Positions 6,500 to 62,120 of a stretch of DNA of 64,000 nucleotides are shown in pieces; the stretch's first letter is position 1; each line of letters opens with the position of its first letter. The translations under genes and the position numbers were made by a program. The DNA is taken from NCBI GenBank assembly GCA_949358305.1, contig OX442314.1, positions 6,262,001-6,326,000 of the forward strand, read 5' to 3'. Under the pieces are notes generated by a model. That model saw nothing but the letters and a program-made list of their open reading frames with translations, was not told the origin of the DNA and did no database searches. This stretch comes from Strigamia acuminata. Taxonomy: Eukaryota.

Positions 6500-6517
6500 A
6501 TCTCGGTAGAACCTCCA
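6500..6517 (-). promoter_or_regulatory. Primer-binding site, tRNA-Gln
   Basis: Plus strand ATCTCGGTAGAACCTCCA matches the 3' 18 nt (with CCA) of metazoan tRNA-Gln as I recall it; 2 nt from LTR end. Confidence 0.88.
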
Positions 6518-6519
6518 CG

Positions 6520-8110: not shown

Positions 8111-8120
8111 AGTCCCCCTT
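8111..8120 (-). promoter_or_regulatory. Polypurine tract (copy at 20545-20554)
   Basis: Minus strand AAGGGGGACT directly before LTR start TGTGACG. Confidence 0.8.
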
Positions 8121-16030: not shown

Positions 16031-16036
16031 TTTTTT
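15996..16036 (-). promoter_or_regulatory. -1 ribosomal frameshift signal (copy at 3562-3602)
   Basis: A_AAA_AAC before gag TGA, 7-nt spacer, stem GGGGGTTG..CAACCCCC; -1 frame reads into pol. Confidence 0.88.
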
Positions 16037-18084: not shown

Positions 18085-18933
18085 AGAAATACACGTACAA
18101 CAAGAAAAAATAAGATTTTAACTGAACTAGCGTAAATGTAACACGCTTAATATTAAACTAAGAAATAATTTGAAAAAATACAACCTTAGCTGCTGAAACT
18201 GAAGTGGCTTCGGGAAAGAACTGTCCTGTTGCGTGGTCAAGAATGGTCCAAACGGGCACTGGTCACAACGGCACAACTGGATGGTCGCACTGTCGAAAAG
18301 CAAGTGTGGCTGAATATTGGTTGTCAAACTAGCTTCCGGAAAATCTCCTTTGTCAAGACAGTCTGCTGTGATTGGCGATGTTGAAAAATTCCTGATAATT
18401 TCTAACCCGAAATTCTCAAAAATGTCACATCTGGATGACCTACTCTGAGCTGCATCGTGAGTGGCTCACTTTGTCACATTCTTTACCTTGTCAGGGATTA
18501 AAAATCATAATTCCTAACATTGACAGAACAATAGAAAAACTGGTCAAGTTTTCAACCAGTAAAATAAAATATTTTAACTTTTTATTTTTCAGTCAGCAGA
18601 ATTTCTAGTCAAATTCGTTTTTTGATCGAAATTCAAGGTTTCGAAATTTTCCAGAATATAGCCGAATATTCTGGGAAACTCAATAAAATCATAATAGATT
18701 TTTCGTAAGAGATTCGGAATTATAATGAGTTTTTCAAAATAATCCAAAAATTCGAATTCAGATATTTCCAAAAGATAATGAGAATTTTTTGAAAACAAAT
18801 GGATATTTCACAGTAAATTTATAGAGAAAAATCGGAAATTTTCTAATTATAATATCTATATAAAATAATCAAGAAAATTCATTTTTTCAATTTTACACTT
18901 GATCACAGAGTTCACTTCAATAAAATGCAACCT

Positions 18934-18951
18934 ATCTCGGTAGAACCTCCA
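18934..18951 (-). promoter_or_regulatory. Primer-binding site, tRNA-Gln
   Basis: Same 18-mer next to LTR 18954. Confidence 0.88.
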
Positions 18952-18953
18952 CG

Positions 18954-20544
18954 TGTGACGATTACCTTCTGGAGATAGCAATTGCTAAACTAAAGTGTGA
19001 ACTATCTGTGTGAAAATGTAAAATATGCAAACCTGATGTTTTCTCAAAACATATAACATTTATTCCGGTTTGAACCTTATATAAATACTATGCCTACAAG
19101 TGGCTAAAATGACGATAAGTTAAACTATACAGTTATTTGGCAAAAGCCCTGAAATAATATCATTTGAAGGCTTCAGTCAGGCAATAAGAATTTGTAACGG
19201 TCTTATTGCTGTGACGTAAAAGATGTCATCTATGAATGGCTTTGGTTTCTAAATGGTCCGGGGTTTGGTTCTAAAAAGGCGTGTAAATGGTTAGGCTGGG
19301 TGGGTTATATCCGAGAGGTGCGGTTGACTTTTCTGTATCGTCACACACATCGCATCGCAGATAATTATTGTAATCAATAATTATCGCGAGATGTAACAAT
19401 GTGAGAATAAATAGTCATATTAATTCTATGGAATTAATCATGATATTTTAGAGTCACAAACTTAACTTAAACTGTGAAAATAAGTAAAATATATTAAAAT
19501 AGCGCCGAGCTATTTTTTGCCCCGAGTGCAATCAACATCTAAGTTAGACTTAAATGTTCCGTCAAACCAATAACGAATTGAATCGAAATATCTCGCAGGA
19601 AAGGTTATCCATCGCCGGGAAATTACTCCACTCGGTCCTGGCTGGCGGGAGAGTAACCGGGAAATTACTCCGCGTCGATTACTCTGATAATGCGTCTGTG
19701 AAATATAAATACTCCACTCTAGATTCTACATTACCAATGCGTCTGTGAATTTTACTCCACTCTAGATTCTGCACTCTACAACGGAATGTTGGCATGAAGC
19801 TGGAGGGAGTGCGTCTGTGGGTTGTACCCCACTCTAGATACTACACTTAAATGTGTCTGTGAATTACTCACTCTAGTTACTACATTTCTACAACGGAATG
19901 TTGGCATGAAGAGGCGGGCAGTGTGTCTGTGAGTCTTCTACCCACTCTAGATACTTACACTAAATACAAAGTATTTCTACAACGGATTGTCGGAACGCAG
20001 AGAAGTATAATATGTGCTCAAGTAATATCAGTATCAAACAAAAACAGAACAAGAGCGAGCTATATCCGTTTTGCAGGGGGATATATACTCGGTGAGGAGA
20101 ATAGCTGTTCAGTGATCCAATGGGATCACTGGGCAGTCAAATCCATCCAATCCCAGATCATAGGAAGTGGATACTCAGGACATAGTCTTCTACTAGGTCC
20201 ACTACAGGAACTGGATACGCAGGACACATTTTGGATTAAGTCCCTTTGACTATAATCCAAAAGGAGTCCAACTCACAGTGGGTGATGGGGGGTGACTTCA
20301 CCAGGTGTAGAGTTTGCACATAATTCAATAGAATTATGTGACAAATAAATCAACTAGTTTTTAAACATCCAAAAGTATTTAAAAGTGTCTAAAGTTGCAG
20401 TGGAATAAAATATAAATAGTAATTTATATTTTATTCACTCAAAAATTGTCGAAATTTGAATTTACCGCTAAAACGCATCAGCGCCATCTATTGGTGAAGT
20501 AATCGTCCTATACTAACAAAGTGTATGACAGTGTAACCGTCACA
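18954..20544 (-). repeat. LTR of element A (second copy)
   Basis: Copy of 6520-8110 at +12,434. Confidence 0.93.
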
Positions 20545-21657
20545 AGTCCCCCTTAAATATATGTTAATACCTGTATTAACATACTATTTATTCCGAATAT
20601 CTTGAGGATCAAGACCACACTGTCATCTATGGAACTGGAGCTGTAATCCTTGGTAAGTAAAAACCTTTATTTTATATCTTAATAGTATAAATAAAGAGTA
20701 TTTCTTAATCAAATGCTTCAAAAAATATTTATTAGGGTTATAAAACTTTCAATTATCAATAATAACTTCCATCTCTCTTTACAGGTGGACTTACAACTGC
20801 ATCAAGAAAAAGGCGATAACTTAAACTAACATCAAACTCTTGTACCAAACAAATGATTAATAAAATTTAACAATTATTTTCACAAAACTTAACTTCTCAC
20901 TGGAAATATAATGATTTGCAAAATAACACTTTACACGTTAAAATTCAAGTATTAAAATTAGTATTCATATAAACAAACTCACATTGACTCGTAATCAAAA
21001 TTTTAACAGAATGGTTAATTTAAATATTAAAGATCTTTGAATTATTCACAAAAAAAATGGCATAAAATACACCTAAACCTGACTAAATCTTTGTTTCATC
21101 TCGGGTCAAGCAATGGAGATGGAGAAAATGGACTCGTTACTTCTGGTCTTGCCTTGAAAAGGGAAAATATCGGGAAAGTAACGGATCCCGACATCGTTGA
21201 CGCTTTCTAGTCCAACTCTTCATCCTCAATAAATCCTTCCATGGATGTAACAACTTCCGAGACGGCTGCGGGTGGAGAATTAAGTTGAATAGTTACCAAT
21301 TCCGGTACTACATCTGGCTCAACGTCATGGGCCAGTGGGTTCAGGAGCATTCTGTGTTGTTCCTCGGTGAATACTTCCAGGGGATCAGGCCCTCCTAAGG
21401 AATGGTGTTAGCGCTGGTTGGCTCGGAAAAAACCAAGTGATGGTCGGGTAAGCCGGAGTGCCATCCCTCACGAATCAACGGGTGTGCTGCTGCTGAGACC
21501 TGTTGCAAAATCTTACACCAAATAAAAGAGCGAGTTTGAAAAGATTCCGGCCGGGATGGATGAAAAATCCATTGGATCACGGCCAGTGGCACGCTCAAAT
21601 CTGGAATTCGGTCGTTTGAAATCGACATGCTAATACGCTTAGCTGCTTCCAATAAAA
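20545..21657 (-). mobile_element. Truncated third unit of element A (PPT, 3'UTR, 3' end of ORF3)
   Basis: Matches 8111-9224, then homology stops abruptly at ...GCTTCCAATAAAA. Confidence 0.93.
21207..21657 (-). pseudogene. 3' fragment of ORF3 with 1-bp deletion
   Basis: CCTAAGG versus CCTAACGG in the intact copy; 5' part absent. Confidence 0.8.
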
Positions 21658-22073
21658 ATGTTACACCAAAATCATCACTTAATTTTGAATATTATACAAA
21701 AAACGACATTAAATTGAAAATTTTAAAATTATACGATAAATTTCATAAAATGGTGAATTTTAAATGTCTGATAGTTTTAATGTCTGATAGTTCTAGAAAA
21801 AAACTCTAAAGACTAGGTACCTCGCTAGACCGGGCACTTTCTACCGTATCCGCCTCTTTGGCCCTCAATATTTCTAAAGCTCATTGAGACAAGCACAATC
21901 ACATATTTATTCCCGTCACCCAAATGTTGCTACACCTTGAATATGGTACGTGGTGCTGTCGTCTTCGGACGAAATCAGCTCCACTCTGTCGTGATTATCT
22001 GGGTCTGTGTAACCTCATTGGGTGTTGTGTGTGGCCCCTATGTCCCTGCTTTTCCGCGGGGGGGGAGATGAGA

Positions 22074-22734: not shown

Positions 22735-23842
22735 CTGCAGGTTAAATTTTCCTTCAATTTCCGTAACAGGCAACTATTGTGGCATTCTCTGTATTCACTT
22801 TCACTGGAGCATAAATCCGAAGATGTATTGAGAAATATGTACTGAAATTTAAAATTAAATAAACACTGGAATAATTTAAATTTCTGAGTTTCAAACTGTA
22901 CTTTGCTGTAACTCAAACTAAATTTTGTTTTAGCCTTAAGATTTGTTCGAGCAATAAAAGTAATTTGTTTTCCAAAATCATTGGGTGACAGCACTAACTA
23001 AATATAGGAAAAAAGTAATAATAATTAGGTTTGTTTTGTTATGATGTTCTAGTTATGAACATTTACATGGTAAGAAGCTATACGGCAAACTTGATCGTCA
23101 GGTTTTTCAATATCCACTGTCAGTGATTTTCCGACAAAAGAGCTAATCGAATTCTTATCTGACCAAATAAAATTTTTATTTGCCACTTACTATTCACGAT
23201 TAATAACAACAATTTATTTACGAAATTGAAACGCTGAGCACATTCCTAAAGTGGAGTCAATTTCCTTACGGACAAAACTTTTGTTTGTAAATCCCTACGA
23301 AAAGAAACTTATAATTTCAAAACACAACTACGAATATTTCTTTTTACTTTCATGTCTACGCGAACTATCTGTTTGGCCACATTAGTCGCTTTCCAAAGTT
23401 CATCCACGTCATGAGTAGAGATATTCAACAAAGTTTTCACCATGTTTACGCATTTCAACATTCGGTCTCTAGGGTCTTTAAAGGTCTGGTGAGTTTTATT
23501 CCAAAGCCGGGCCATTTCGACTGTATTGCTACTACAGATCATCAAGTTTGGTGAAATGACATCATCTGATTGACTGGTTACATCGACCGCTTTAGGATAA
23601 CTTAAGTAATGCATTACTCTATTGTACGTCTGATAAGTGAGCATGCACGTGCAACATGAGAATAAAAGCAGCCAAAATACGTGGCAATTGCGCCAACTAA
23701 TTCTATTATTTACAAAATCATCCAAACCAATTAAATTGCATCTTGGCCGATTTGCGTCGTCTTTCATAAATTGATGAATTTTCAAGCGAAGTTTTCTCAA
23801 TCCTCGACCATTTTTCCTCATCACGTAAGTATTGCGCATCAT
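22735..23842 (-). CDS. DEG/ENaC-like gene 1, exons 1-5 only (23842-23348, 23294-23222, 23158-23067, 22997-22902, 22841-22735)
   Basis: TM1 plus YLSYP..V..PNLMIC; GT-AG exons of 73/92/96/107 nt as in gene 2; later exons not in window. Confidence 0.8.
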
Positions 23843-25497: not shown

Positions 25498-25893
25498 CTA
25501 ATGGCGAATTGGTAAACGATTTGCCATTGGAAACGCAAAAACGTGACCAATGGCGAATATGTGTGTGCTGAATTTCGCCATTGGAAACGCAAAAACGTGA
25601 CCAATGGCGAATATGTGTGTGCTGAATTTCGCTATTGGAAAGGGTTTTGCGTTTCCAATAGCGAATATGTGTGTGCTGAATTTCGCCATTGGAAACGCAA
25701 AAACGTGACCAATGGCGAATATGTGTGTGCTGAATTTCGCTATTGGAAAGGGTTTTGCGTTTCCAATAGCGAATATGTGTGTGCTGAATTTCGCCATTGG
25801 AAACGCAAAAACGTGACCAATGGCGGATATGTGTGTGCTGAATTTCGCCATTGGAAACGCAAAAACGTGACCAATGGCGAATATGTGTGTGCT
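25498..25893. repeat. Subterminal 54-bp tandem array (~7 units), left arm
   Basis: Unit TTGGAAACGCAAAAACGTGACCAATGGCGAATATGTGTGTGCTGAATTTCGCCA. Confidence 0.93.
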
Positions 25894-29420: not shown

Positions 29421-29680
29421 TAAAGGATTTTGAAGAGATTTGAATTTTTTTCCATCGTTTTTTGAATAAAACTCATTTTTTTGCGGTTTTTTTTAAAAAT
29501 AAAATTGAATTTTTCATCAATTTTGAATTAAATTGAGTTTTTAAAAAAATGTTTTTGAATCAAATTGAATTCTCAAAAGATTTACATGAGGCTTTGTGAT
29601 GTTATTTTGTAAATTTTTAATTTATTAATTCTTTATTAATTCTTTTAATTTTACAGCGGATATCAATATCAAATACAGAC

Positions 29681-31543
29681 ATGCAAGCCACTATCATCGA
29701 AGGATTCCGAAAGAATTCTAAGCTGTATTTAATAGATGATGGACTACTCTATAGGCGCGATTCCTCAAAGGACAATAAAGCATACCTGTCGTGCAATGAC
29801 AGAGCTTGTAGTGGAAGGGCGATTTTGCAAACAATCACAAATGAATCACTAATTTCAAAAGAACATAATTTAGCACATCTGGATGCACACGTAGATGTAG
29901 CAAACAGGCAGTTTGCAGTTGTCGTTAAAACACGTGCTGAAGAAGAACCTTCAGTTAGCTTACGCACCATTTACCATGCCGCTGGTTTAGAGATCCCTGA
30001 AGCAACGACATCATTCAGGTCTGCGGAGTCGGGAATGGCAAAGAGGCGGCGTCTGAATTTCCCAGTATTGCCTGACACTTCAGAGGAGTTAGCCCAGCTG
30101 TTACCCGAAATAATGCATGGCCAAACGATTGGAGAAGAGATTTTTTTTCGAGAGCGACTGGTTGCGGGTGATGTAGAGATGTTAGTTTTCGCAGGGCCTC
30201 GAATGGTCACTGCCGCGACGAATGCTACGCTTTACCAGATGGATGGGACATTTACAGTTGTTCCGTTACCTTATTACCAACTGTTCACCATATTCGCCAT
30301 TACGAACGGATTTGCACTGCCTGTTCTGTTTGTGCTTATGACAGGCAAGACCCAGGCTGCGTACGAGACTTTGCTACGGTATGCAAAGAGCCTTAACTTA
30401 ATGCGAGCTCAGGACCTAACCATTATCACCGACTTCGAGACAGGCTTGCTGCCAGCCATTCACCAACAGCTGCCTAATGCCCGGCACCACGGCTGCTACT
30501 TCCACTATTGCCAGGCTCTCTGGAGGAAAGTTCAAAGTCTGCGAATGATAAGAGAATACCGAACTGTGGTTGAGATCAAAAGCATCATTAAAAAAGCAAT
30601 GGCACTACCATTTCTGAAACCAGATGACATAGTCGAGGGTTACGAAATCATCCGACAAGAGTTCATCGAAACAGATCTCATAGAAGCTTACAATCGTTTG
30701 ATTTTCCTGTTCCTGGACTATGTAAACGACACGTGGATTCAGCGCGTGGGTGTTGAGCGAATTTCGGTCCACGGACAACACCGGCGTACAAACAATGCAG
30801 TGGAATCGTACCATGCTGCTCTTTATCGCCAAATCAAAACGAGCCATCCGAATTTGTGGGTTTTCTTAGATTTCATCCGACGTATCGAACATCAGGCATG
30901 CCGTGACTACGACTTGATCCATATGGGAAACTTGCCCAACCGAGATCGCCGCCTGAAGTATGCCTACACCGACCGCAGGATTCGCCGTGTAATTGCGCAG
31001 TATCGAGATAACCTGAAAACCATCCCAGAGGTGTTATCACATCTCATGAATGTCGCACCCCGGTTCGATGGCATGACGAGGGCGCAACAGCGCACCGCTA
31101 GGCGTAATGAGGTTCGTGCGAATGTTATTTTGCCAGCACCGATTCCTGTGCTCGCACCGATTGTTGTACCCGCACCGATTGTTGTACCCGCACCGATTGT
31201 TGTACCCGCACCAATGCCTGTTGCTCGGCCACGCCCAAACACGCGCGCCCGTGTGCGAGATGCAAATGTAGTACCACCTGTAGTTGCGCCACGAGATGCA
31301 AATGTAGTACCACCTGTAGTTGCTCCACGAGATGCAGACGACATGAACTGCATAATATGTCTAACTGCCAGAAAGAATGCCATTTTTCTGCCATGTGCAC
31401 ATGGCCACTGCTGCTTGCCTTGCAGTGAGCGGGTGATGCGTGGAGAATATACGGATGCCGCGGGAGTTCAGCGTGTGGGTAGAAGACCTCATTGCCCCTT
31501 CTGCCGTGGTCGCGTGGTTAGCGTGCTCAGAATTTTTCTCTAA
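29681..31543 (+). CDS. MULE transposase with N-terminal FLYWCH-like finger and C-terminal RING finger
   Basis: MDGTF, TDFE, CYFH, TNNAVESYH; CIIC..PCAH..CLPC..CPFCR at C-terminus. Confidence 0.92.
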   Translation: MQATIIEGFRKNSKLYLIDDGLLYRRDSSKDNKAYLSCNDRACSGRAILQTITNESLISKEHNLAHLDAHVDVANRQFAVVVKTRAEEEPSVSLRTIYHAAGLEIPEATTSFRSAESGMAKRRRLNFPVLPDTSEELAQLLPEIMHGQTIGEEIFFRERLVAGDVEMLVFAGPRMVTAATNATLYQMDGTFTVVPLPYYQLFTIFAITNGFALPVLFVLMTGKTQAAYETLLRYAKSLNLMRAQDLTIITDFETGLLPAIHQQLPNARHHGCYFHYCQALWRKVQSLRMIREYRTVVEIKSIIKKAMALPFLKPDDIVEGYEIIRQEFIETDLIEAYNRLIFLFLDYVNDTWIQRVGVERISVHGQHRRTNNAVESYHAALYRQIKTSHPNLWVFLDFIRRIEHQACRDYDLIHMGNLPNRDRRLKYAYTDRRIRRVIAQYRDNLKTIPEVLSHLMNVAPRFDGMTRAQQRTARRNEVRANVILPAPIPVLAPIVVPAPIVVPAPIVVPAPMPVARPRPNTRARVRDANVVPPVVAPRDANVVPPVVAPRDADDMNCIICLTARKNAIFLPCAHGHCCLPCSERVMRGEYTDAAGVQRVGRRPHCPFCRGRVVSVLRIFL

Positions 31544-33526: not shown

Positions 33527-34250
33527 TTCGCCATTGGAAACGCAAAACCCTTTTCAATGGCGAAATTCAGCACACACATATTCGCCATTGGTCACGTTTT
33601 TGCGTTTCCAACGGCGAAATTCAGCACACACATATTTGCCATTGGTCACGTTTTTGCGTTTCCAATGGCGAAATTCAGCACACACATATTCGCCATTGGT
33701 CACGTTTTTGCGTTTCCAATGGCGAAATTCAGCACACACATATTCGCCATTGGTCACGTTTTTGCGTTTCCAATGGCGAAATTCAGCACACACATATTCG
33801 CCATTGGTCACGTTTTTGCGTTTCCAACGGCGAAATTCAGCACACACATATTTGCCATTGGTCACGTTTTTGCGTTTCCAATGGCGAAATTCAGCACACA
33901 CATATTCGCCATTGGTCACGTTTTTGCGTTTCCAATGGCGAAATTCAGCACACACATATTCGCCATTGGTCACGTTTTTGCGTTTCCAATGGCGAAATTC
34001 AGCACACACATATTCGCCATTGGTCACGTTTTTGCGTTTCCAATGGCGAATTTCAACATGCACATATTCGCCATTGGAAGCGTAAAAACGTTCCCAATGG
34101 CGAATTTTACATTAAAAACAAATCTCCCACATTCGCCCTTGGAAACAGAAAATATCTTTCCAATGGCGAATGTGGGAAATAAAACATTCCTGCACTCAAA
34201 AAACGTTTCCAATGGCGAATTTAATAAAATTTGCCATTGGAAACGTCAAA
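33527..34250. repeat. Subterminal 54-bp tandem array (~9 clean units plus degenerate ones), right arm, inverted
   Basis: Reverse complement of the left-arm unit. Confidence 0.93.
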
Positions 34251-34679: not shown

Positions 34680-37600
34680 ATGCGCTATTATTATGTTCCG
34701 AGAAGAAATGGACGGGGAGTGAGAAAACTTCGTCTGAAAATACGTCAATTAATGAAAGATGATGCAAGTCGACCGATGTGCAATTTAATTGGTTTGGATG
34801 ATTTCGTAAATAGCGGAATTAACTGTGGCAAAAGGCAAGTCTTTTGGCTACTTTTATTCTCATTTTGCACGTGCATGCTGACTTATCAGACGTACGACAG
34901 AACAATGCATTACTTAAGTTATCCTACTGCGGTTGATGTGACGAGTAGATCGGAAGACGTAGTTTTACCCAACTTGTTGATCTGTGGTGGCAACACAAAG
35001 GAAATGGCTAAGCTTTGGAACAAAACTCAGCCAAAAGTTAAGCCTAGTAAAGAAGAATTCTTGAAATGCGCAAACATGGTGAAAACTTTGTCAAAAAAGC
35101 CAACCTACAATGTGGAAGAACTTTGGAAAGCGACCAATATGTCTAAAAACATAGTCCGCGTGGAAATGAAAGTAAAAGGAACAATTTGTTAATTTTATTT
35201 TGTTTTTAATTACTTGTATAGTAATTTCTTTTCTTATAGGGATATTCGGACAAAAGTGTTATTCAGACAGAAATTAACCATCCATTAGGAATGTGTTTAG
35301 CATTTCAATTCCGTAAATTAATTATTATCACTAGTGAAAAATAAATGGCAAATAAAATATTTTATAATTGGTCAGATAAGAATTCCAGTCGATCGTTCGT
35401 AGGAAAATTGCTGACCGTAGATATTGAAAAAACTGACAATGAAATTTGCTCTGACTCTCCTTACTATGTAATCGTAATTTAACCCTAGCAGCCCCAACCT
35501 AAAAAAAAATCCCTACTCACCCAACCCGGGTCATTTTTGACCCCAACAAAGATGGCCGCCGCAGCACATGAACGCGTGGAGCGTCCAACTTCATTCCATT
35601 AATTTTATGTTTATTTTGATTCTGATTGTAGTTTTTTTGTTGTTTTTGGATTTAGTGTGTTTAGATCATTAGAAATAGGGTTTGAAGATAAGGGTAAGTG
35701 GCAAAAATACCACAGTACGGTATACCGTAATCACGGCCATAATACCGACGGTACCGATCAGGCGGCCATGCACAAATTCGTCCTTGCGACGTAACGGAAA
35801 AAAACAAGTTTAGACCAAAAAATGACATTTTAGATTTAAAAATTGGCATTTTGGACCAAAAAAATTATGTTATTAGCCCAAAATCGATGTTATTAACCCA
35901 AAATTTTTTTTTAAAAATTATCAGTTCGTACATTTTTTTTATTGTTGCAAGTGACGAAAAAGCAAAATACGAAAAAAATCAGAAAAAAATACATTTATTT
36001 TGATAGAAAAAAAAATAAAAAACACTTTCTGGGGTCAAAATTGACCTTAGGTTGGGGTGGGGAGGGTTAATAAGTGCAAAACCATCCCCAAATCCCCATC
36101 CTAAATCCCAAACTTAATTATTTCTTTGGTCCATGTGTCTGTGTGTCTAATTATTTTTTTCTAATTTAGATTGTGTTGTCATCAAATGATTTTGAGAAAC
36201 AATTTAATTTCGTGACGTATAAATACCACAACACTAAGCCAAAAATAAATTTGAGTTTCAGCAAAGTAAACCTTGAATTTGAAAAGTTAAAATTTCTTGA
36301 AATGTTAATTCTGTTTAAATTTTCTCGCAGTACGTATTTCTCAATTCTTCAAAGTATCCATGCACCAGTGAGAGCGAATACAAAGAATGCTACAAAAGAT
36401 GTCTCTTAAAGAAATTAAGAAACACTCTGACCTGCAGGTAACCACTGTTTGTCTCAACTGGATTTAGTAGGAACTTGTGACCGGCTGCCCCTGCGCAGAT
36501 CACTTCCCTGCACGCCAGAATGTCCTTACGGCAGCTCCAAGCACTGCACGTTCGTCTGGCGCGGTGGAGCTGCGGACCATGGAAATGACCAGTGGGTCCA
36601 AATGACCATTCGGAAGTGGTGTGGGTCAATGGAGGGACCCACAAGTTGTTATTCCGACAGCAGAGCGAACTGTTGCATCCGACCACATGTGCAATGCTGT
36701 TTGCGAATCCGACTTGCAAGATCGGTGTGGTGAGTCTCTCGCCCTCCGGGACCTGAATGTTCAAGCGTGGTCACGTTCGGTAGACATTGCCCCTCAGTAA
36801 AGCCTCACCGACGTGACGGAGAAGGTGAAACCGACCACGGGTGTCAGAAAGACTCAATCGCTACACGCAGGCTGAGGGAAATGCATCTAAGACACTTAAA
36901 TCCCCTAGACCAGGGGTTCTCAAACTTTTTAGCATTGCGACCCATTTTTAAGTAAGGCGATCTTCCGCGCCCCACTTCATCATCGATGCATTAAATTTTT
37001 TCAATATGAACTATTAGTAACATAGGTTGTTACTATTTTTTTTTCCTACAAAATTCATCGCTTTGGGGAATTACAATAGCTACAAACTTCCACTTTTGGA
37101 AGTTTTGACTGGTTTCTGCTGGTTTTTGGAGAATTTTGGGTGGTTTATGTAGATTTTGAGAGATTTTTGTGAAAACCGACACGATTTTACACGTTTTAAT
37201 TATTATTGCCATTGTTTATTTGTTTTTTTTATAATAATGTGAAATTTTGATATATTGTTGATTTTAATTGTTCATTGGTTGTTGTAATAATTTGATTTTG
37301 ATGAGTTATTAATTTTGATTACACTTTATTTTAATTCCTTTGAAATTGTATTTTGTTCTTTTAGGAGTGATTAATTCACCTTGAACCGTTTTTCTCTCTC
37401 TTCCTAGAACTCTCCTAATTGCCAATGTGCCATCAATTATCTCGTGCTCCCCTTTTGGAGCTCGTCATTGCTTGTCCATGCGCTTTACCTTTTAGCATGG
37501 ACTTTTTAGTCATTTCACCTTTTTATTTTAATTGTCGTGTTTTACATAGAATAAACTTCGTCTTGAAGAAGTTTTGAACCAACAAGTCGACTTTTTTATT

Positions 37601-40421
37601 TCTCAAAATCTACATTATAATTTGAAGTCATTATTGTTATTCAGGGAACTAATTATCCGCAATACCTTATTGCATTTCAAAATTTTTGTGAGGTTAATGT
37701 GAAGATTTTAGAAGATCTTTGTCTAGCCTGTTGTGTATTGCAACCAACTACAGGCAGTAAGTTGGAATTGGAATTGGCAAAAAATTTAAAAAAAAATTGA
37801 ACAAAATAAATTTGGGCGACAAAGGTATTGAACGTTGTTGCACCCCACCAAAAATCAGCCCGCGCCCTACACATGACGTGGCCGGTTAAACATACCATTC
37901 TGCCGTACTCACCTGTACGGCCCATGCAACCGCTCATGGAGGCTGTAGTGGATCTATCATCACACTACTGAGTGTTGCAGTGGTGAATGGGGAGGAGAGC
38001 AGGGTCAGCACAGGGCACAACTACCATTGCTGGCTTCAAAACCTTTCTTCACACACCTGTATCGGTTGAGACCCAGCATCCTTCTCTCTCTGTCTCTCTC
38101 CCTCCACACCCCACACCACTCAGCTCCCTCTTTCCTATACTGGGTCATACCACTCTGCGAAGAGGGATGACCTTAGGAGCATTGGACGGCGGGTGGCAGT
38201 GACGCTGGTCATCCGTGGGTGGCCAAGCGGTCACAAGCTATAACAATAACCAGAACTCATGTATTTCTGGGTAAATCTTATACAAGTAGTGTGTGTCGCG
38301 TCAAGCGCCTAATGGTTCTCCCCTTGACCACATTGTATCCGTCTGAACACTCACAAACTGGCGCATCACCACTCAATTTGATACTAAATTTCTTTGCAGA
38401 TTTCCATTTATTGATATGAAGATAAATTTACCACTTTGTCAAGGTTCAAATACCACACACAAACAATACGGTGTGGCAAATGGATTAATTGAGAACACTG
38501 ATCCAATTGTTAATTGTTTATGCCACCGTCCATGTCACAAACTAATTTTCCAACCGTACATTGATAGAGAGGAAGAAAATGATGGAAAGATTATGTCTAC
38601 GTCTTTAGAAATAACCCATAAAGAAATCAATGTGTATGAAGAACGATGCACGTACGATGTTATTGCTTTACTCTCAGACTTAGGAGGCAATCTCGGCCTC
38701 TTTCTTGGTTTGTCCATAATCTCAATACCCGAAATCATTTGGTATGTGTATTGCATTCTATCAAAAATTTCTAAACATCGACCAGTTAATAAGATTCGTA
38801 CACTTTACGAGATCTGCAAGAAGAAATCAATTGCTAGCAATCAACAAATTAAAGCAAATGGACTCTTCGTAAAGCTCAAGTTAATACTGGTAATAATTAG
38901 TACAGGATTTACTTTATACTTGATGCAAATTCGTTTCAACTACTTCATTGATGAACCGGTAATAAGAGTCGTTAGTATAGTTCAACGTCGCATCACTGAA
39001 CTGCCCTCAGTGACTCTTTGTGGGGAAAAACAACATCCGTGGATGGATGAAGCTAGATTAAATTTGCTTAAACACTCGCACAAAACCTGCAGTGACATAC
39101 GGCCTTGGCAATTGTTCAGTAAGAAATTGTCAGTGGAAACAATATGGGATTCGTTGAACATCCATAGATATCTTAATGTTGAGGAAGACACAAGTGAGGT
39201 AAAACGGCTAAAGCACTTTTGTAAAATTTTTTTACAATTATTTTATATTTGTAGCACACGACTGGATATAAAGCAATGCAAATGGGTGTTACAAAAAGTC
39301 TTAATCCACTTCCTTTTGGCCATTGTTCACATGTAAAAGCAGGTAATTTATTCATTTAAGTTTCTGTAAGACACATCTTCAGCTTCTGTTCTGTGCGCTG
39401 GTTTTGTCTGTATTTGTGCTCATGCAATTGGGAGCTTGTGGTATTTGCCACTGTAAGGTTTCATGTTACAACAGGTCTTGTCTGAATGAAAGTTAAAACC
39501 TAACTATGAACGTTCTAATTTTTTAGACACGTCAACTCTGTTAACAGCTAAAATTGTCATCACTTTAGAATGGCTTTTTCCTCCAACTCCAGAAGTATGT
39601 GACCAGCATCTATGGGTACGACACAACCATTAGCACACCTGTGAACATAAAAGTTCTTACAATTTTTGTAGTTTGAATGTATAATCACTCAATAACTTTT
39701 AGTTTTACCTGAGCAATCCTGATGAGGAAATTAACATTTTGGCACCATCGATGGCAAAGTATGGATATATGAATTCAGTAATGCTTCAAACATTTAAGGT
39801 AGCAAACGTAAATCAAATAATAATTAGTAGTGAATCAATTTTCGAAAATAGATTGTACGAAGAGACACAAAGCATAATCCATGTGAAAGAAACAACAGTG
39901 CCTATGTAGAGTGTCAAAATGCATGCATTCAAAACAATTTATATCGCACGATCGACTGCAGGTACTCGTTGTCTCTCTTTGACCTATTCTTGCAACATTA
40001 CGTTCAAACATCTTATTGTTTTAGATTGCCTTATATGTCAGCACCAAATTTGTTACTTTGCAACACGACGGAAGACATCTCTTCAGCACATTCCACATAT
40101 TTAAACAACTATAATTCAAATCAAAAACGGTGCAAATGCAAACCCCCATGCGAAAAAATATTTTACCGAGCTCCTATGCATGAAATACAAATGAACTATG
40201 ATTTCTTCACAGTTCTGGAATTGAAATTTGCTGACAGTTTTATAGAGAGTACTGAAGAGAAACAAAAATATCCAATATCTCAATTATTAAGTGATGTTGG
40301 CAGCATTTTAGGATTAGCGTTGGGAATGTCGTTGCTCTCTTTTTACATTTGCATTTTAAACAGTTACAATTGGTTTCGAAATCAAAAAGTAACCAAATTT
40401 ATTAAAACTGTTTCTGCCTGA
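34680..40421 (+). CDS. DEG/ENaC-like gene 2, tandem two-subunit protein, 812 aa by manual splicing; exons 34680-35171, 35240-35312, 35376-35467, 36170-36265, 36331-36437, 38400-39198, 39255-39342, 39527-39615, 39703-39798, 39852-39961, 40025-40421
   Basis: All introns GT-AG, frame stays open; two TM1 segments, two GxC motifs, two CxCxxPC, two TM2 motifs (LSDLGGNLGLFLGLS; LSDVGSILGLALGMS). Confidence 0.88.
35483..36066. mobile_element. piggyBac-like MITE in intron 3 of gene 2
   Basis: TTAA|CCCT..CCCCAACCTAA ... TTAGGTTGGGG..AGGG|TTAA. Confidence 0.78.
36476..38235 (-). repeat. LTR-like repeat, family C copy 2, apparently interrupted by a hAT-like insert from 36911
   Basis: TGTGACCG...CGGTCACA termini; 37860-38235 similar to 22074-22570; CAGGGGTTCTCAAACT hAT-like end at 36911; left boundary uncertain. 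Confidence 0.55.
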
Positions 40422-41033: not shown

Positions 41034-42730
41034 TTAATCTAGTCCGCACAATTTAGAGCACCAGCACTGCTTCTGCAGCATGTCTGCGACCATCTTGTCG
41101 GTTCCCGCGTGCAGTAGCTCCTCTTCTCCATTTTCGACTTCATCCTTTATGAAACAATAACGTAAATTAATGTGCTTCAAACGCTGATGTTGCGCCAGTC
41201 CTCGCGCCAACATTTTGGCCGATTCGCTGTCGGTGTACAGTCTCGCAGCGACCCCCATCAGCTCGCTCAGCCCCAGCTCTTCCAGAAACTTCTTGAGCCA
41301 AAGTCCCTCTTTTACCGCCTCGCTAATGTCGATGAATTCGGATTCGCAGCTCGACATCCCGACACACGTCTGTTTCGATGATTTCCACACTATTCCGGCC
41401 CCTGAAAGTAAGAAAATAAATCTAGTTGTCGATTTTGCATCCTCAGTGTTGCAGTTCCAGCTCGCGTCCACGTATCCCGTCATCTGATCCTCGTTTCGCA
41501 TGAATCGCAACTTCTTTCCCTTCGTCCCTTTCAAGTAGCGCAAAATTCTTTTTCCATCTACCAATGAGACAAACCATGGCTGTGGTTGTATCTGCACAAG
41601 TAATGCGTTGCGTACGCAATGTCGGGCCTTGTTCCTTGTACGAGTTACATCAACGACCCCATCAGGCTCTGGTACTGCACCTCCTTGTTTGAGACTGTAG
41701 ATGGCTTTCAGAAGCTCGCACACCCATTTTTCTCGGTCAAGTTCCTCGTTCCCTGGTGGCTGCTCCATATACACCTTCTCAAGCAGTTTCCCGTGCAGGT
41801 ACGCCATTTTATGTCGTACTGTCGTATTCGTCATTTCATATAGACAGTGATGGCTAGAAGTAGTCGAAGGCTCGCGAGTCGCATCACTGGCGAATAAGTC
41901 TCCTCGTAATCCAGTCCCGGTCGTTGCCCGCATCCGACAGCTACCAATCTTGCTTTGTATCGCTCGATTTTGTCTTGCTGATTCTTTTTAATTTTGAAGA
42001 CCCACCTGGACTTCAGCACATTGATTGCAGCAGCTCATTTCACCAACCTCCACGTTTTGAATTGTTTGTGTGATTTTAGCTCGTCCTTGATGGCGTCTTC
42101 CTATTTCTTGTGCTCTGGAGACTCTCGTGCTTGGACCACGGTGTTCGGTTCGACGTGCTTCACGCTGTTGCCGTACGTTGCTCCTCTTGGTCGCACCACT
42201 AGCCAGTCTGGCTTCCTCTTGGTTTGCTTTGATTTGCGAGTTGGCATGTTTTTGTCTGCCTCTTCGTTGTCTCCGTCTCCGTTTCCGTTCATATATTCTT
42301 CTTCGTCGGTGGCATCGTCGTTCGTCTCGTTTGGCTCTGAGTTGTGTGTTGTCTGATCCCCAGTCTCTTGCTCGGCATTGTATGGCGACACAAAATTCGA
42401 ACCATGAGGTGAAGTCAGCATTTCTTCGCCCGATCTCGCCTCGTTGAATTTCAAGTCGCGTGTCAGCTCTAGTTTCTCGATTTTCGGGTCGTAAACACGG
42501 TAGCCCTTTCGGTTAACGCAGCACCCCATGAAGATAACAGGTTTTGACTTCGCGTCCAGTTTGCTGCGTTTGGAGTTGTGGATCCACATCTGCGCAGCAC
42601 AACCAAAAATTCGAAAGTAGCCAATTTGCTGCTTCCGACCGCTCCAAAGTTCCTCTGGAATTTTGTTCCCGTTTCCTCTCGTCAAGCATCGGTTGCGCAC
42701 GTGTGCGGCCGTCGCAACTGCCTCACTTGC
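41034..42730 (-). pseudogene. Decayed Ty1/Copia pol (integrase C-terminus, RT, RNase H)
   Basis: PEELWSG..FGC..SKLD..GYRVYDP, RWVFKIK..YKARLVA, YSLKQG, GYVDASW, SSCESEF, KHINLRY; frameshifts, stop and internal deletion. Confidence 0.92.
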
Positions 42731-46279: not shown

Positions 46280-49200
46280 ATGAGTATAAATAGTTCCAAA
46301 ATAATGGAGAAAGATAATTTGATGTGGAGATACAGAAGAGCGAAAAAACAACTGTGTCTGACAATTCACCAATTAATGAAGGATGATGCCAACAAACCCA
46401 ACTGCGATATAATTGGCTTGGAAGATTTCGTCAACAGTAGGAAACATTGTAGCAAACATCACATCTTTTGGCTGCTTTTATTCACATTCTGCACGTGCAT
46501 GCTCACATATCAGACATACGACAGAATAATGCATTACTTCAGTTATCCTACAGCTGTCGACGTAACGAGTAGAACAGAAAATGTTACTTTACCAGACTTA
46601 ATGGTCTGTAGTTCAGATACAAAGAAAATGAATAGGCTTTTGGAAGAAACTAGCATAGCTAATAAACAAACACCAATACCCATTTCATGCAGTAATGAGC
46701 TTGAAACACTAATGACAATTAAAAACCCAACTTACGATATGGATACACTTTGGAAAGCAACTAACAATACTGATGACATCGACAGTGTAAAAATGAAAGT
46801 AAAAATTGAAATTAAAAAAAAACAATAGAGAAATGCAGTTAAAAACCACAATTTAAACTACATTTGCATAGGGATATTCAAATACTACTGTTGTTCAGAC
46901 GGAAACTGACAGTGGATTAAGAATATGCACAACATTTCGATTTGGTAACTACAAACAAGCATTTATCAATACGTACCTACATTAAGGAGTTTCATTAAAT
47001 GAGCGATTAATTGATTACTTTGATTACTTTGATTAGTCGATTACTTTGTCACGTCTTAAACTCAAATTGGTGTTGAATTATGGTTGACTGATAATTTACG
47101 CAAGTGTTTAGTTCGCGCGAATGGGTCGCAGGCTCGCGAGATCGTTTGTAACAAAGCCGCCGGGCAATACGGATGGTTGGCGGTGAAACGTTCTCAACTC
47201 GCTGTTATTACAACTATATATTTTTTAACGACAGGTCACTTTACTTACAGTTGATGTTGTTTGTAAAAATAAACGTGCACCGGGTCAATCTTTAACATGG
47301 GTGAAGAATGATGGCCAGGCATGATAAAAAATAGGAAAGGCATTGGGTTTGCGCGAAAGGACTAGTTTCAGTATGAATGCGGTGTTTAGGTGCAAAGAAA
47401 GATAGGTTTGACATTCTCATTCCACTGGACCAGGGTTAAAGCTGGTTGACAGTTTAGATGGAAGAGGAGAAGTGATGTTTTAGTGGTCAGCAAAGCTATA
47501 AGTAACCTCTGATCAGGTGATCAGAGGGCCAAACTATTTGTGTGAATAATTATTTCTAAGAGGAGGGGAAAGTAGAATTAAATGTGATTGTTGGAAATAA
47601 ATGAGATGCGCAAGAAACTTCATGTGCATATATTGAGTCGCATCAATGAGTCATTTAGGTTAAATAAAATAGGAAATAATATAAAATGTTGGAAAAGTTT
47701 AATCAGTTAGAAAAAGAGAGGGGCAAGGTAAAAGAAACAACGTGATGCGCAAATAATTATTCGCGCACACTCAAAGTAGAACAACTTAAAAACACTAAAA
47801 TGAAAGAACAGAGAGAATAAGGTAGAAATAGTATAAATTAAGAAAAATTAAGATGAGATAAAAACCATGCCCGAGACAACTTAATGTGTCATGTGACTGG
47901 ATTCAACCAATCCCGAGAATAATCATTTCATCAAATAAGTAACTAAGCAACTAATCAAGTAATCACCCCAAAGCATGATTTTCTGCTGATTTGGGCCGAT
48001 TATAAGTGCTCTCTCATCTGAAACCAACATGGCGGCGCCAGACCCGCTTCAACTACACAAGGTCATAATATAACAAAGTCTGCTCAGTTTAGGTTAAATT
48101 GAACACATGAAACGAGTTAGGTAGTTGCAATTATTATTTGTAGGAACTTTTTTTAAACAATTGCAACGTTTTTAGGTTAGAATTTAAACAAATCCGCCTA
48201 TCGGAGCAATAATCACATAATCAGATTTTTGTTGGGCCCTCAATAATTGAGTGATTACGATTTTTGCAATAATCAACTAATCACAATAATCGCTCATTTA
48301 ATGAAACCCCTTATTGTTACACTAATATTATTCATTGACATAGCTGAAGCTTCTAGCAAATCATTTGTCGGAAAGTTACTGACAGTGAATTTTAAAAAAA
48401 ATTACGACTTCATATGCAATATGCCTTTCTATTGGGTAACTTAATTAGATTACAATAGCAACTGCTACATTAATTTTTTCCTCTTTGTTCTTAGTTTTAC
48501 CTGACATTCAATAATGTTGGAAATCACTTTCTTGTATCAGCGATGTTTCCTGGTTCAACGTCCAAAATAAATTTTAGTTATAACAAAGTAAAGTTTTACC
48601 AAAGGACTTGAAATTCCTGAGCAACACCTTTTAATGTTTTCAATTGTAGTTTATATTGCAAAATTCACCGATCAGTCCATGCTCTAACGAAGACGAATAC
48701 AGAGAATGCTATCGGAATTGCTTACTTAACCGATTTAAAAAGCTAAAATGCAGGTAAGAACAAGTGTTGAAAATGCTTCTTGTTTGGTATCACATTTAAA
48801 CAGCTAATTTAATATATTCTATACAAGATTTCCGTTCATGAAGTTCGATTTGCCACTTTGCAAATTAGCAAATGATGCATATCAGGTGTATTCTGGTGTT
48901 CTGAAATTGGTTAGATATGCAGAACCAATTGCCGATTGCCAATGTCGATGTCCATGTCAACATTTAACTTTTACACCATATACTGATTTAAGCATGCCTA
49001 ATAATAATAAAACAATGACTGTATCATTAGCAATAACTAATGAGAAAGTCACTGTTTATGAAGAACGGTACACTTATGATGTTATTGCCTTACTGTCAGA
49101 TTTAGGAGGCAATCTGGGCCTGTTTCTTGGACTATCCGTAATCTCACTACCTCACATCATTTGGTATTTATATTATGTTGCATCAAACATTCATCAAAAA

Positions 49201-51177
49201 AGATCCGTCAATAATATTAGGCGTCTGTTTGAAACGTGCAAAAAAAAAGTTGATGAAACTGAGGAGCAAAGCAAAATACATACAATCTTAAAAAAGTTGA
49301 AGCTAATAATCATATTAGTTGTTGCAGGATTTACTTTGTATTGCCTGCACATTCGCGTCAATTACTACCTCGATGAACCGAGCACAACAATCGTTCGAAT
49401 AAGTCAACGACGTTACACCGAATTTCCTTCTGTCACAGTTTGTGGTGAAAAAAGAAATGAAGGAATGAGCAAAGCCCGATTAAACTTACTGAAACAACCC
49501 AATAAAACTTGTGGCAACATGTCACCCTGGCAATTGTTCCACAGCAAATTGTCATTGCAAAACATCTGGGAATCGCTCAATATCGACAAAACGTTTGCTA
49601 TTGAACTAATTGGGAATGATGTATTACAGTATAATCTTATTTCACTTCCATTTGGTAATTGTTCACAAATAAGAAATGGTAATACACAAAATTAATTTTT
49701 GATCTTAGTTAATTAATGGTTCTATTAAAAGTCTACTTTTTAGTTATGCTATTTTTCAATGTTTCTTTTTTTTCCGGAATTATTTAACTGCAGAAATTGC
49801 TTTCCTGCAGACTAATTTGAAAATTAATTCTGACCTTTTGGCTGTCTTATAGATAAAAGAAGCACAAACACAACTAAGCTTAGAATTTGGTTTAGTAGAT
49901 ATCTAACTCTTCCAGAAGCTTGTGATCCGCAGCTAAAGGTGTGTAAAAAAAATATTTTTACTTGAAATCACCTGACATTTTGCAACCACAATGGCATGTG
50001 TTAAATTGACAGTCTCGGTGTCTTTTTAAGCAGCATTCTGAAATAAGATAACGAGAAAGTCTGTTTATTCAAGCACAAAGAAGCAAAAAAGATTCTTAAG
50101 ATAATCTAAAGGTGAAAAAAATAACAAAAATGGTTTGTTTTTGTTTCGGATACACATGTATACCTAATAGAAAAATAAAAAAAATATTTTTTGTGCTAAT
50201 ACATATTAATTATTAATATAAATATTTTGGATTATAATAACACGCAGCTCATCATAAATAATCAGGAAGAGGAAGTTAACATTTTAGCACCATTTATCGT
50301 AAACTATGCGTGTGTTAACGAAGTAGTACTTCGAGACTTTCAGGTAGAAAATGAAATAAATTATATAAATGCTCATACTAAGATTTCTTTTACGAAATAG
50401 ATCATAAGAAGAAATACAAAGCGTAATCCATGTGAAGGGAACAAAAGTGCTTATCTCAAGTGTATTAGTGCTTGCTGGCATAACAATGTATTTCGAGGTG
50501 TTAACTGCAGGTATAGTTCAGATGTTTCATTTCTTTTCATACATCAGCATCAGTTTTATCACATTTATTCTCATTTTCGCTGTTCTTAACATCGACTAAT
50601 CAGCTAATTCGCAGTCAATTATGAGTTGGCAAAGGGTTATTGCCTTAGCTTTAACCGCACAGAAACTTGCAAGCATGTTTTGACATGATAGCCATTAAAT
50701 ATTCATTTGCGGCATCACCAGATTGAATTTGTCCAAAAAACACACCTAACCCTTTTCAGCAGATAAACTGCAACCATTTGCATCTTTGACCAATCTCCTC
50801 TTTGTTTCAGATTACCATACATGGGAAAACCTAATTTGCCAGTTTGTAACACTACAAGTGCCATAACTACCGCTCATTTCAGGTATTTAAGCAACCTTGA
50901 CTCGAATCAAAAACAATGCAAATGTAAACAACCTTGCCAAGTTATTTTCTACCAAACCAATTTTCGGGAGAATAAATTGCCAGAGGCCATTAATAACCAA
51001 CCATTACTAATATTCCAATTTGCTGATAGCTTTGTAGAGATTGTAGATGAGAAACAAGCATATCCAATATCTCAATTCTTAAGCGATTTCGGTAGCATTG
51101 TAGGACTGGGTTTGGGAATGTCACTTCTCTCTTTGTACGATTGGATTTTAAAAACTTATAATTGGTATAAGAATTAA
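46280..51177 (+). CDS. DEG/ENaC-like gene 3, tandem two-subunit protein, ~796 aa; exons 46280-46798, 46872-46944, 48344-48435, 48495-48587, 48650-48753, 48828-49678, 49853-49938, 50248-50343, 50401-50510, 50811-51177
   Basis: GT-AG introns, open frame, paralogous to gene 2 with the same doubled motifs; start could be a later ATG. Confidence 0.87.
46984..48312. mobile_element. Non-autonomous TIR element in intron 2 of gene 3
   Basis: TIR AAGG(A/G)GTTTCATTAAATGAGCGATTA, subterminal TGATTA repeats, ATT on both flanks. Confidence 0.78.
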
Positions 51178-55344: not shown

Positions 55345-56862
55345 CTATTCCTTCTTTTCGACATCAGTCGAATCTTTCTCTTCCTTCTTCTCGACTTCAG
55401 TAGAAGTCAGGAGATCGGACTCTTCAGTCGCTTCAGTCAAAGCGGCAGAAAACACAGCTTCTACGGAAGCTTCCATTTCGTCCGGGCTCGGCGGCGGAAA
55501 CGGCATGTCGTCGAAAAACTCGGCCACGAAATCGACGACTGAAGGTAGTTCTTCAGCATCCTCGAACTGTGCCTCGTCCGAAGTTTCAGACTTAGGTGCG
55601 ATAGGAGCGCTCGACACGTCGATTACGACCGCTGGAGGATCCTCCACGGGTTTAGACGACGCTTCTACAGCCTGTTGAAGCTTACGAGCTCGCCCTCGTG
55701 CCAAGATATTGGTTCGCTGAACCTTGGCAATTTCCTTGGCTCGGTCGAGCGTGAGGCAGCCTCGACCACGCGACATCGTTCTTGGTCGAACGAATTCTTC
55801 TTGCACCTCGCTTCCAACGCTTTCAGTGGCCTGGACAGTTTCAGTAGAAACTTCGGAGTCCTCGGACAGTGGTGGCGATTGTCGAAGGAGTTCGACTCTT
55901 ACGCCGGCGTTGGCTTCAGCACGGGTCCAGGTGAGGAAACGCGGGTCGATGTACACAGCCTCGCCACGGCTGTTTAGAAACAATCGGCACTTGGGGCAGT
56001 GAGCCCAACATCGCTTCTCGTTCGGCTTAATGCCTTTCACCACGTGGGGTTGAACCTCCTTGCGCCACGGCTCCGAACGCGGTCGCGTTTTCCTTCCACG
56101 GCAGTTTGGACAACGCATTAAAGAAGAACCTGCGGATGCACCGCAGCACCACCCACAGCCGACGCAAAATGGGCAGATCGTCTCTGTTGCCTGGTCCGTC
56201 ACGATGTTATCGTGAGGTATTCCGGCTGCCATGTCTCGTTCGCACTGCTCCTTGCGCAGGCGGGCCTTCTCGTCCTTCTTTCGTGCCTTATTGGCCGCTC
56301 GGTACTCGCGGTTGCGAGAAACAGGCTCCGAAAAACGCAAAGCGCCCGGCGGCGGCTCATTCCATCCGTATTCTGATGCAGAAGACTCAGCACCAGCAGG
56401 AAGATGCGTAACAGACGCTGATTGTCCCGTCACAGTCGGTGCAGCCGCATTCGACGTGTTGGCGACGGTGGGTGCCACGCTTGCAGTTGGCGGCCGAAAT
56501 TCTGGCGAATGTGGGGCCAACGGGACGTTGATAACGTTCGCAGGCGGAAATGCTACCTGGGCCAACGGGGCCAATTGCGCCGACTCATAAACAGTTGGCT
56601 GCGCAGAAGTGGACGGGGCCTGCATCATCGCGTTTAAGTCGAGCGGAAATCCGTCCGGATGGACACTGAGCCAATTAAGCGTTGCGAGTTGCAGCGGCGT
56701 CAGGGCGTACATCGAGGCGGGCGCCGTCGGTATCGGTTGGGCCCTCATGTAAGCACGTTCCGCTGAACGGCGTTGCTCGTCACTAGACGAGGTGGACGAG
56801 CTGGAGCTTTCATGACGGTGTCGTCGATGACTCCGTTTCGAACGGTGTTTACCGCTTCCCAT
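55345..56862 (-). CDS. ORF3 of element B, 505 aa from ATG 56862, Cys-rich accessory protein
   Basis: CPFCVGCGW..CPNC..CPKC domain homologous to ORF3 of A; TTTGCGTCTGCAG|ATG acceptor context. Confidence 0.88.
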   Translation of the reverse strand: MGSGKHRSKRSHRRHRHESSSSSTSSSDEQRRSAERAYMRAQPIPTAPASMYALTPLQLATLNWLSVHPDGFPLDLNAMMQAPSTSAQPTVYESAQLAPLAQVAFPPANVINVPLAPHSPEFRPPTASVAPTVANTSNAAAPTVTGQSASVTHLPAGAESSASEYGWNEPPPGALRFSEPVSRNREYRAANKARKKDEKARLRKEQCERDMAAGIPHDNIVTDQATETICPFCVGCGWCCGASAGSSLMRCPNCRGRKTRPRSEPWRKEVQPHVVKGIKPNEKRCWAHCPKCRLFLNSRGEAVYIDPRFLTWTRAEANAGVRVELLRQSPPLSEDSEVSTETVQATESVGSEVQEEFVRPRTMSRGRGCLTLDRAKEIAKVQRTNILARGRARKLQQAVEASSKPVEDPPAVVIDVSSAPIAPKSETSDEAQFEDAEELPSVVDFVAEFFDDMPFPPPSPDEMEASVEAVFSAALTEATEESDLLTSTEVEKKEEKDSTDVEKKE

Positions 56863-62114: not shown

Positions 62115-62120
62115 TTTTTT
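62080..62120 (-). promoter_or_regulatory. -1 frameshift signal of element B
   Basis: A_AAA_AAC before gag TAG, 7-nt spacer, stem GGGGGA..TCCCCC; -1 frame joins MDVD of pol. Confidence 0.88.

Follow-up and report, generated by a model that had tools for sequence, protein, structure and literature searches.

The window analysed here is a 64,000-nucleotide stretch of the Strigamia acuminata genome (contig OX442314.1, positions 6,262,001 to 6,326,000, forward strand), and it carries a gene, termed gene B, that holds two unlike DEG/ENaC channel subunits in one open reading frame. Gene B belongs to a family of DEG/ENaC genes in which two subunits are naturally fused, and this family is real, old and expanded. 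Subunits of this class are described as chains with two transmembrane (TM) helices that form trimers, and the usual way to probe how the subunits of heteromers are ordered, and in what stoichiometry, is to build artificial concatemers. Gene B departs from the canonical one-module, two-TM subunit in having two modules and four TM helices in a single frame. An earlier note on this DNA had proposed a duplication and fusion into such a frame. This proposal is backed by sequence, selection and relatives, with its scope corrected: the fusion is ancient and family-wide, not peculiar to gene B. The gene has the following parts, in which TM2 positions carry the primed numbers that we take to be those of work on ASIC channels.

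34680..40421, forward strand: gene B, 11 exons, an 812-amino-acid frame with only the terminal stop
34680-35171, forward strand: exon 1, with the start codon, the N-terminus, a remnant of the pre-TM1 loop and TM1 of module 1
35240-35312, 35376-35467, 36170-36265 and 36331-36437, forward strand: exons 2-5, extracellular domain of module 1
38400-39198, forward strand: exon 6, the junction exon, with the end of module 1, the linker and the start of module 2
38659..38763, forward strand: TM2 of module 1 (DLGGNLGLFLGLS, acidic residue at 18'), bounds approximate
38767..38871, forward strand: linker, cytoplasmic, 35 amino acids, net charge +7, predicted helical
38872..38937, forward strand: TM1 of module 2, from hydropathy, bounds approximate
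38998-39021, forward strand: ELPSVTLC motif of module 2, in exon 6
39255-39342, 39527-39615, 39703-39798 and 39852-39961, forward strand: exons 7-10, extracellular domain of module 2
40025-40421, forward strand: exon 11, with TM2 of module 2 (DVGSILGLALGMS) and the stop

All 10 introns of gene B have GT-AG boundaries. The internal exons of module 1 (73, 92, 96 and 107 nucleotides) and module 2 (88, 89, 96 and 110 nucleotides) have the same phases, 0-1-0-0-2, and the five intron positions of each module fall at matching anchors, for example C/RFPF and C/RLPY, where the stroke marks the intron. The repeat of exon sizes and phases is therefore as the earlier note had read it, and the anchors recur along with it. 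The sizes and phases of exons 2-5 are also common to genes A and C, two paralogues in the window. Exon 6 does contain a TM2, a basic stop-free linker, a TM1 and ELPSVTLC in that order, as had been claimed, with the linker measured at 35 residues rather than about 40, and the second TM2 said to close the gene lies in exon 11 before the stop. In its architecture, exon 6 resembles two coding exons run together, the final one of a first gene and the opening one of the gene after it.

A scan with the Pfam ASC profile (PF00858), proposed earlier as a check for two modules, gives matches in exon 1 (E 1.8e-9, 37.6 bits), in two stretches of exon 6 (E 4e-18, 66 bits) and in exon 11 (E 6.3e-15, 55.6 bits). 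The curated cut-off is 23.6 bits, and these matches place gene B in DEG/ENaC. Both modules have the hallmarks of the family, namely TM1, a P-x-x-T-x-C motif after TM1, a cysteine-rich extracellular domain and G-x-S in TM2. The motifs of module 1 and module 2 pair as LPNLLIC with LPSVTLC and GLS with GMS, and the cysteines are matched. The modules are nevertheless unlike, with 24% identity over 371 aligned columns (E 8e-19). The canonical pre-TM1 HG re-entrant loop is absent from gene B. At its likely place module 1 has LIG, which we take to be the equivalent of the HG motif, and in module 2 the segment is missing.

The linker of gene B contains no stop and no in-frame ATG, and both other frames contain stops. 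In-frame ATGs of exon 6 occur only at residues 293, 352, 462 and 502, with none between TM2 and TM1. An open frame is found in 5.6% of 20,000 shuffles of the 108-nucleotide linker, which is weak evidence by itself. The frame is also open, with 113-114 residues between anchors, in gene C and in four relatives from Strigamia maritima. Between genes B and C the linker comprises 36 codons with no indel, and a simple counting method gives synonymous and nonsynonymous divergences (dS and dN) of 1.47 and 0.53, a dN/dS of 0.36. The corresponding ratios are 0.36 for module 1, 0.45 for module 2, 0.35 for TM2 of module 2 and 0.32-0.38 over whole comparisons. A hidden intron, or a start codon belonging to module 2, was considered and rejected after the in-frame ATGs and the splice sites of exon 6 had been checked. 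There is a good donor (TG/GTATGT) at 38742, and the acceptor 43 nucleotides further on is weak.

An assembly slip at the linker is unlikely because one contig in each of two DNA sequencing runs spans 38700-38900 and matches without a difference, although both runs come from one study that is possibly the assembly's own source. A closer copy of the gene in these runs differs by 19 letters over the junction, with no gap. Of these differences, 17 can be assigned, 8 being silent and 9 changing an amino acid, and none creates a stop. In each run, 30 of the 32 contigs on the 261-nucleotide junction are less than 95% identical to it, which hints at more family members in the same genome.

The nearest named proteins to exon 6 are S. 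maritima models with 54-59% identity, among them T1JEH2 (58% over 97% of the exon). A full HMMER search with T1JEH2 yields 338 representatives at E values up to 0.001, of which 150 were listed. These 150 and 5 cluster members make up the 155 proteins examined, and junctions were detected with small TM1 and TM2 profiles made from the listed matches. There are 33 proteins with a TM2-then-TM1 junction among the matches listed, and many single-module relatives. Twenty of the 33 are from S. maritima, six are from a leech, a midge, two shrimp species and a scorpion, and the remaining seven are one European Nucleotide Archive protein (P0051, about 25% identical) and six without species assignment. 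The survey of relatives suggested earlier thus returned 16 S. maritima models (about 19 to 59% identical to exon 6) that have the same junction and belong with the window genes. The close models T1JEH2, T1JEG4, T1JGJ4 and T1IYF0 and the distant models T1ITL7, T1JD34, T1IPM9, T1J963, T1JBK6, T1JF12 and others share both the TM2-linker-TM1 junction and the module order. Unlike gene B, these UniProt entries are automatic models, often partial, and nearly all are named 'uncharacterized protein'; sequences of this family have long been present in UniProt in that form. A word-based search with a 24-sequence alignment returned 3 proteins only, a metagenome scan with exon 6 gave 253 pattern matches with 0 confirmed, and in the ESM Atlas, searched as clusters of at least 50, the nearest clusters are single-module ASC proteins.

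All 21 junction linkers that were measured are rich in lysine and arginine, with net charges of +2 to +11. From the TM2 aspartate to the cysteine after TM1 there are 109-137 residues in the 21 junctions and 113-114 in the six closest. Within the subfamily of gene B, the sequence of the linker is variable and its length is held. In some subfamilies the linker is longer and includes an FPG segment that resembles a loop; this segment has been lost in the gene B subfamily.

A tree was built with IQ-TREE from 46 modules, picked for completeness and with BRTNaC1 and PDPNaC1 left out. Ten first modules group in a clade of their own (98/93), as do fifteen second-type modules (98/98). The tree is without resolution on a sister relation of these clades. 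With profiles made from other subfamilies, each of eight being omitted in turn, 15 of 15 modules of at least 330 residues are assigned their own position, and the module order is fixed across subfamilies at about 20-28% identity. At the level of sequence, the first and second modules are thus shown to be two old lineages. Accidental merging of tandem genes would make the modules of one model closest kin, and the family of gene B shows the opposite. Because the two kinds of module form separate clades, these data point to a single ancient fusion that was then multiplied as a unit, and not to accidental merging as the source. A recent local duplication is rejected by the 24% identity between modules and by the reciprocal clades. 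A first FastTree tree, of 136 modules with 10 short fragments dropped, does show modules of one model as sisters in the leech and scorpion models and in S. maritima T1IU28, T1IZL2, T1ITG7 and T1IL99.

The pore helices of the two lineages have diverged. First modules have G at 3' in 24 of 24 cases, N at 4' in 22 of 24 and an acidic residue at 18' in 17 of 24. In second modules, 3' is S or N (8 of 9), 4' is variable, 18' is acidic in 2 of 8 and 6' is Ser in 4 of 9. A Gly-to-Ser change at 6' of PDPNaC1 leads to higher Na+ selectivity (PMC12714832). D0', G2' and G10' are invariant among the second modules (9 of 9) and the dN/dS of this helix is 0.35, and for these reasons the TM2 of module 2 is likely still part of a pore.

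The solved channels closest to exon 6 are PDPNaC1 and BRTNaC1 (E 3e-11 and 1e-9; 6e-20 with T1JD34 as the query). BRTNaC1 is a 431-amino-acid, two-helix, heat- and proton-dependent cation channel of centipede antennae (PMC9974506), and PDPNaC1 is a proton-gated homotrimer of 421 amino acids per chain, also from centipede antennae and without the canonical HG motif (PMC12714832). An AlphaFold2 model of the complete S. maritima protein T1ITL7 has both modules folded, with a predicted local distance difference test (pLDDT) value of 70.8 and a predicted template modelling (pTM) score of 0.67. In the linker of this model the TM2 helix is extended and is followed by a short loop and a helix that runs into the next TM1. 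The top-ranked Foldseek matches are BRTNaC1 (E 1e-16) and PDPNaC1, with template modelling scores of 0.64-0.70 by target, so both channels are the nearest solved relatives by sequence and by fold. The DEG/ENaC fold is thus recognized in T1ITL7 as a stand-in rather than in the spliced gene B protein. Exon 6 alone gives a weak AlphaFold2 model (pLDDT 61, pTM 0.32); its helices follow one another as in T1ITL7, and the TM2 helix is broken at G-L-S. A complex prediction for the T1ITL7 chain plus one extra extracellular domain, in which the alignment was not used, scored 0.01.

These features present a sharp assembly problem, wherein two modules have to be accommodated in a channel with three seats. 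We favour an explanation that begins with a merger, which would have occurred once, early in the history of the centipede lineage or before it, and would have joined the terminal coding exon of one gene to the initial coding exon of a tandem neighbour that had already begun to diverge. The fused pair would then have multiplied and diversified as a unit, as in sensory receptor families. Since the cytoplasm is where TM2 of module 1 leaves the membrane and TM1 of module 2 enters it, a 35-residue helical linker could join the modules with the topology unchanged, and it is very probable from the open frame that they are translated as one chain. This four-helix chain may provide a trimeric cation channel with two unequal subunits in neighbouring seats, and a separately encoded single-module subunit would take the third. 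Our reasons for a separate third subunit are that centipedes do have single subunits, that heteromers are common in the DEG/ENaC family (PMC8438182) and that both pore helices are constrained. Given one chain, such a 2+1 assembly is slightly better than an even bet. Since the helix of module 2 is consistently altered and its pre-TM1 loop is missing in the subfamily of gene B, such a pore would lack symmetry and have a fixed composition and order, with a canonical helix from module 1. ASIC concatemers with added linkers of 19 residues form functional trimers (PMC10329638), so function tolerates short linkers. Kinship with BRTNaC1 and PDPNaC1 and the expansion of the family make a sensory role, for example in the perception of protons, heat or chemicals, likely by analogy. 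To the explanation as a whole, one four-helix chain that fills two adjacent seats of a trimer with a separate single subunit in the third, we assign a probability of roughly 50%.

Several observations weigh against this explanation or parts of it. Gene B is known from DNA alone, and it is from the open frame that we infer read-through of the linker into one chain. The dN/dS of the linker is taken from 36 codons and is close to saturation. S. maritima models were generated automatically (PMC4244043), and many are partial or garbled, T1JEH2 for example repeating its own N-terminus. Their junctions are seen in protein models, and the single-exon status of the junction comes from the window genes. 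The FastTree tree groups both modules of T1ITL7 together, along with the chimeric-looking T1IS61, and puts the garbled first module of T1IQZ3 outside the first-module group; T1IS61 and the T1IQZ3 fragment were left out of the IQ-TREE tree. P0059 and P0066, which are single-looking models, were put in the second-module group after the FastTree result. Two of the held-out assignments have thin margins (169 versus 164 and 113 versus 104 bits), and the ESM Atlas model of T1ITL7 has a pTM of only 0.53. Among the relatives examined, a partner subunit for the gene B chain was not found. Finally, engineered two-subunit ASIC1a chains conduct without a partner (PMC4529235), so a partner subunit is not strictly required.

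The whole chain might instead assemble only with itself, either as two chains per trimer with one dangling module or as three chains that form two cross-linked trimers. In the latter case the two trimers would have different pores (1-2-1 and 1-2-2) and channels would be clustered. This is a serious rival, given that engineered ASIC1a chains of two subunits carry current by themselves (PMC4529235). The expansion of the family as fused units fits this arrangement, as does the failure to find a dedicated single-module partner. However, unassembled modules are usually retained by the quality control of the endoplasmic reticulum. There are also many single-module relatives among the matches listed, centipede single-module channels are known (PMC9974506, PMC12714832), and the ASIC1a currents may, according to their authors, stem from cleavage products, lower-mass products being present (PMC4529235). 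We regard assembly of the chain with itself as rather unlikely. Far less probable still, and the least credible of the arrangements weighed here, is that two chains form a four-module pore with two-fold symmetry, as in K2P and two-pore channels. An even number of modules would tile a tetramer with no remainder, and one biochemical study argued for tetramers of ASIC1a (PMC4529235). However, the closest relatives are solved as homotrimers, with three chains per entry (PMC12714832), and the three-module models of other arthropods suit a trimer.

Perhaps the fusion is a device for co-expression, wherein a cut in the basic linker, or splicing at the GT of 38742, releases separate subunits that mix freely. 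The linker is basic in all 21 junctions and the donor is good, yet the positive-inside rule predicts basic residues beside TM helices, and a cytoplasmic linker is beyond the reach of luminal convertases. In addition, the donor arises incidentally from Trp-Tyr codons, the 43-nucleotide intron would be shorter than all ten introns of gene B (at least 53), no Met precedes TM1 of module 2, and linker length is held in the subfamily while sequence varies. Thus, co-expression is improbable, even though engineered concatemers do give lower-order products (PMC10329638, PMC4529235). It is a shade less credible that gene B is silent or decaying, or that the fusion is a read-through accident of tandem genes. 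The introns of both gene B and gene C contain transposons, and gene A is interrupted by them, but all 11 exons of gene B are open with canonical splice sites and the dN/dS is 0.32-0.38. Accidental merges, moreover, pair sister modules, as in the Helobdella and Centruroides models, and the module order here is fixed across subfamilies at about 20-28% identity.

Other multi-module DEG/ENaC models are found among the relatives. There are two three-module models in Halocaridina rubra (P0094 and P0102, of 1244 and 1289 amino acids) whose modules pair by position in the FastTree tree, and a Penaeus vannamei cluster of six members (P0130/P0156-P0160) matches them module by module, with its middle module much shortened. 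For five of the six the source is a Logan contig (3.4-4.0 kb, with a 1001-amino-acid frame), and these contigs we infer from their size to be transcripts; the sixth is a RefSeq model. The shrimp frames are likely real chains of separate origin and candidate single-chain trimers. A second, younger group of concatemers in S. maritima (P0006, P0007, P0008 and P0019, or T1IU28, T1IZL2, T1ITG7 and T1IL99) has two or three similar modules, all with the canonical GGN pore helix, and the near-identical junction in three of these models argues against random merging. The modules of Polypedilum vanderplanki P0022 (1460 amino acids), Centruroides vittatus P0149 and Helobdella robusta P0021 are close kin, and these models may be real or may be merged tandem genes. 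Matches of about 900-980 amino acids from molluscs and nemerteans were rejected as concatemers, each having one TM1 and one TM2. A bolder proposal, which we consider doubtful, is that the centipede chains, a large and old family whose two modules cannot tile a trimer, therefore form a new assembly, either three chains in two tethered trimers with unlike pores or two chains in a four-module pore. If true, DEG/ENaC channels would have evolved by concatenation repeatedly, a route not yet described, with other arthropods arriving independently at three-module single-chain channels.

Two paralogues and several transposable elements surround gene B.

46304..51177, forward strand: gene C, a second intact fused two-module gene, 10 exons, 788 amino acids
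48828-49678, forward strand: junction exon of gene C, 52% identical to that of gene B
22735..23839, reverse strand: gene A, a third paralogue, exons 1-5, 286 amino acids open
16027-18117, 11750-16057 and 8773-10464, reverse strand: gag, pol and a third frame without a Pfam match, parts of a Ty3/gypsy-type element

Gene C is without the first intron of module 2 and has a short deletion there, and the acceptor of its junction exon is AAG. Intron 5 of gene A is filled with long terminal repeat elements, and its junction exon and remainder lie outside the window. A third module beside gene B was sought and rejected, further ASC exons being absent nearby. Intron 5 of gene B (37873-38174) and of gene A (22564-22245) share a stretch of 75% identity, which in gene B closely precedes the junction exon; in gene A the similarity ends at that point and other insertions come next. 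A 54-bp tandem repeat occurs in opposite orientations at 25519-25893 and 33551-34077, upstream of the divergent genes A and B. The region is rich in transposons, with insertions in the introns of genes B and C and others that interrupt gene A. Within intron 5 of gene A, positions 1-9227 and 12435-21660 form a direct repeat with 99.97% identity that contains a Ty3/gypsy-type element on the minus strand and is either a tandem insertion or an assembly duplication. A second, diverged Ty3/gypsy-type element at 55345-64000 (minus strand) has gag, pol and a third frame of 519 amino acids without a Pfam match. There is an intact-looking Mutator-like element (MULE) transposase frame at 29621-31543 (plus strand), with FLYWCH at its start and a C3HC4 RING finger at its end, and a broken Ty1/copia-type remnant at 41034-42730 (minus strand) between genes B and C.

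Natural multi-module DEG/ENaC proteins are not described in the open-access texts searched. In the available parts of an insect PPK survey, a mite survey, a DEG/ENaC phylogeny and a review, a search by terms found no passage on fused modules, and the available ENaC passages of a decapod study are silent on multi-module chains. ENaC is absent from the main text of the S. maritima genome paper. The available part of the insect survey does list 46 PPKs for which three to five helices are predicted, and it does not term them fusions. For curators, the family of gene B indicates that long arthropod models with several ASC domains are not all annotation errors and that splitting them by default is unwise. 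Its fixed composition also reveals the positions at which pores diverge, namely 3', 4', 6' and 18' of TM2 and the pre-TM1 loop.

In K2P, two-pore and Nav/Cav channels, internal duplication fixes the subunit composition and lets the repeats specialise, and gene B shares this feature. However, those channels are tetramers that are tiled exactly by chains of two or four repeats, whereas two modules cannot tile a trimer. BRTNaC1 and PDPNaC1 resemble the family of gene B in having a compact extracellular domain and no canonical HG motif (the latter stated for PDPNaC1), but they are single-module homotrimers with two TM helices, whereas gene B encodes four TM helices in two dissimilar modules. Engineered concatemers of ASIC and ENaC subunits, which are functional, are joined head-to-tail by a cytoplasmic joint as in gene B (PMC10329638, PMC4529235). 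They are artificial and retain full N- and C-terminal tails plus a spacer, whereas gene B is natural and old, with trimmed tails and diverged modules.

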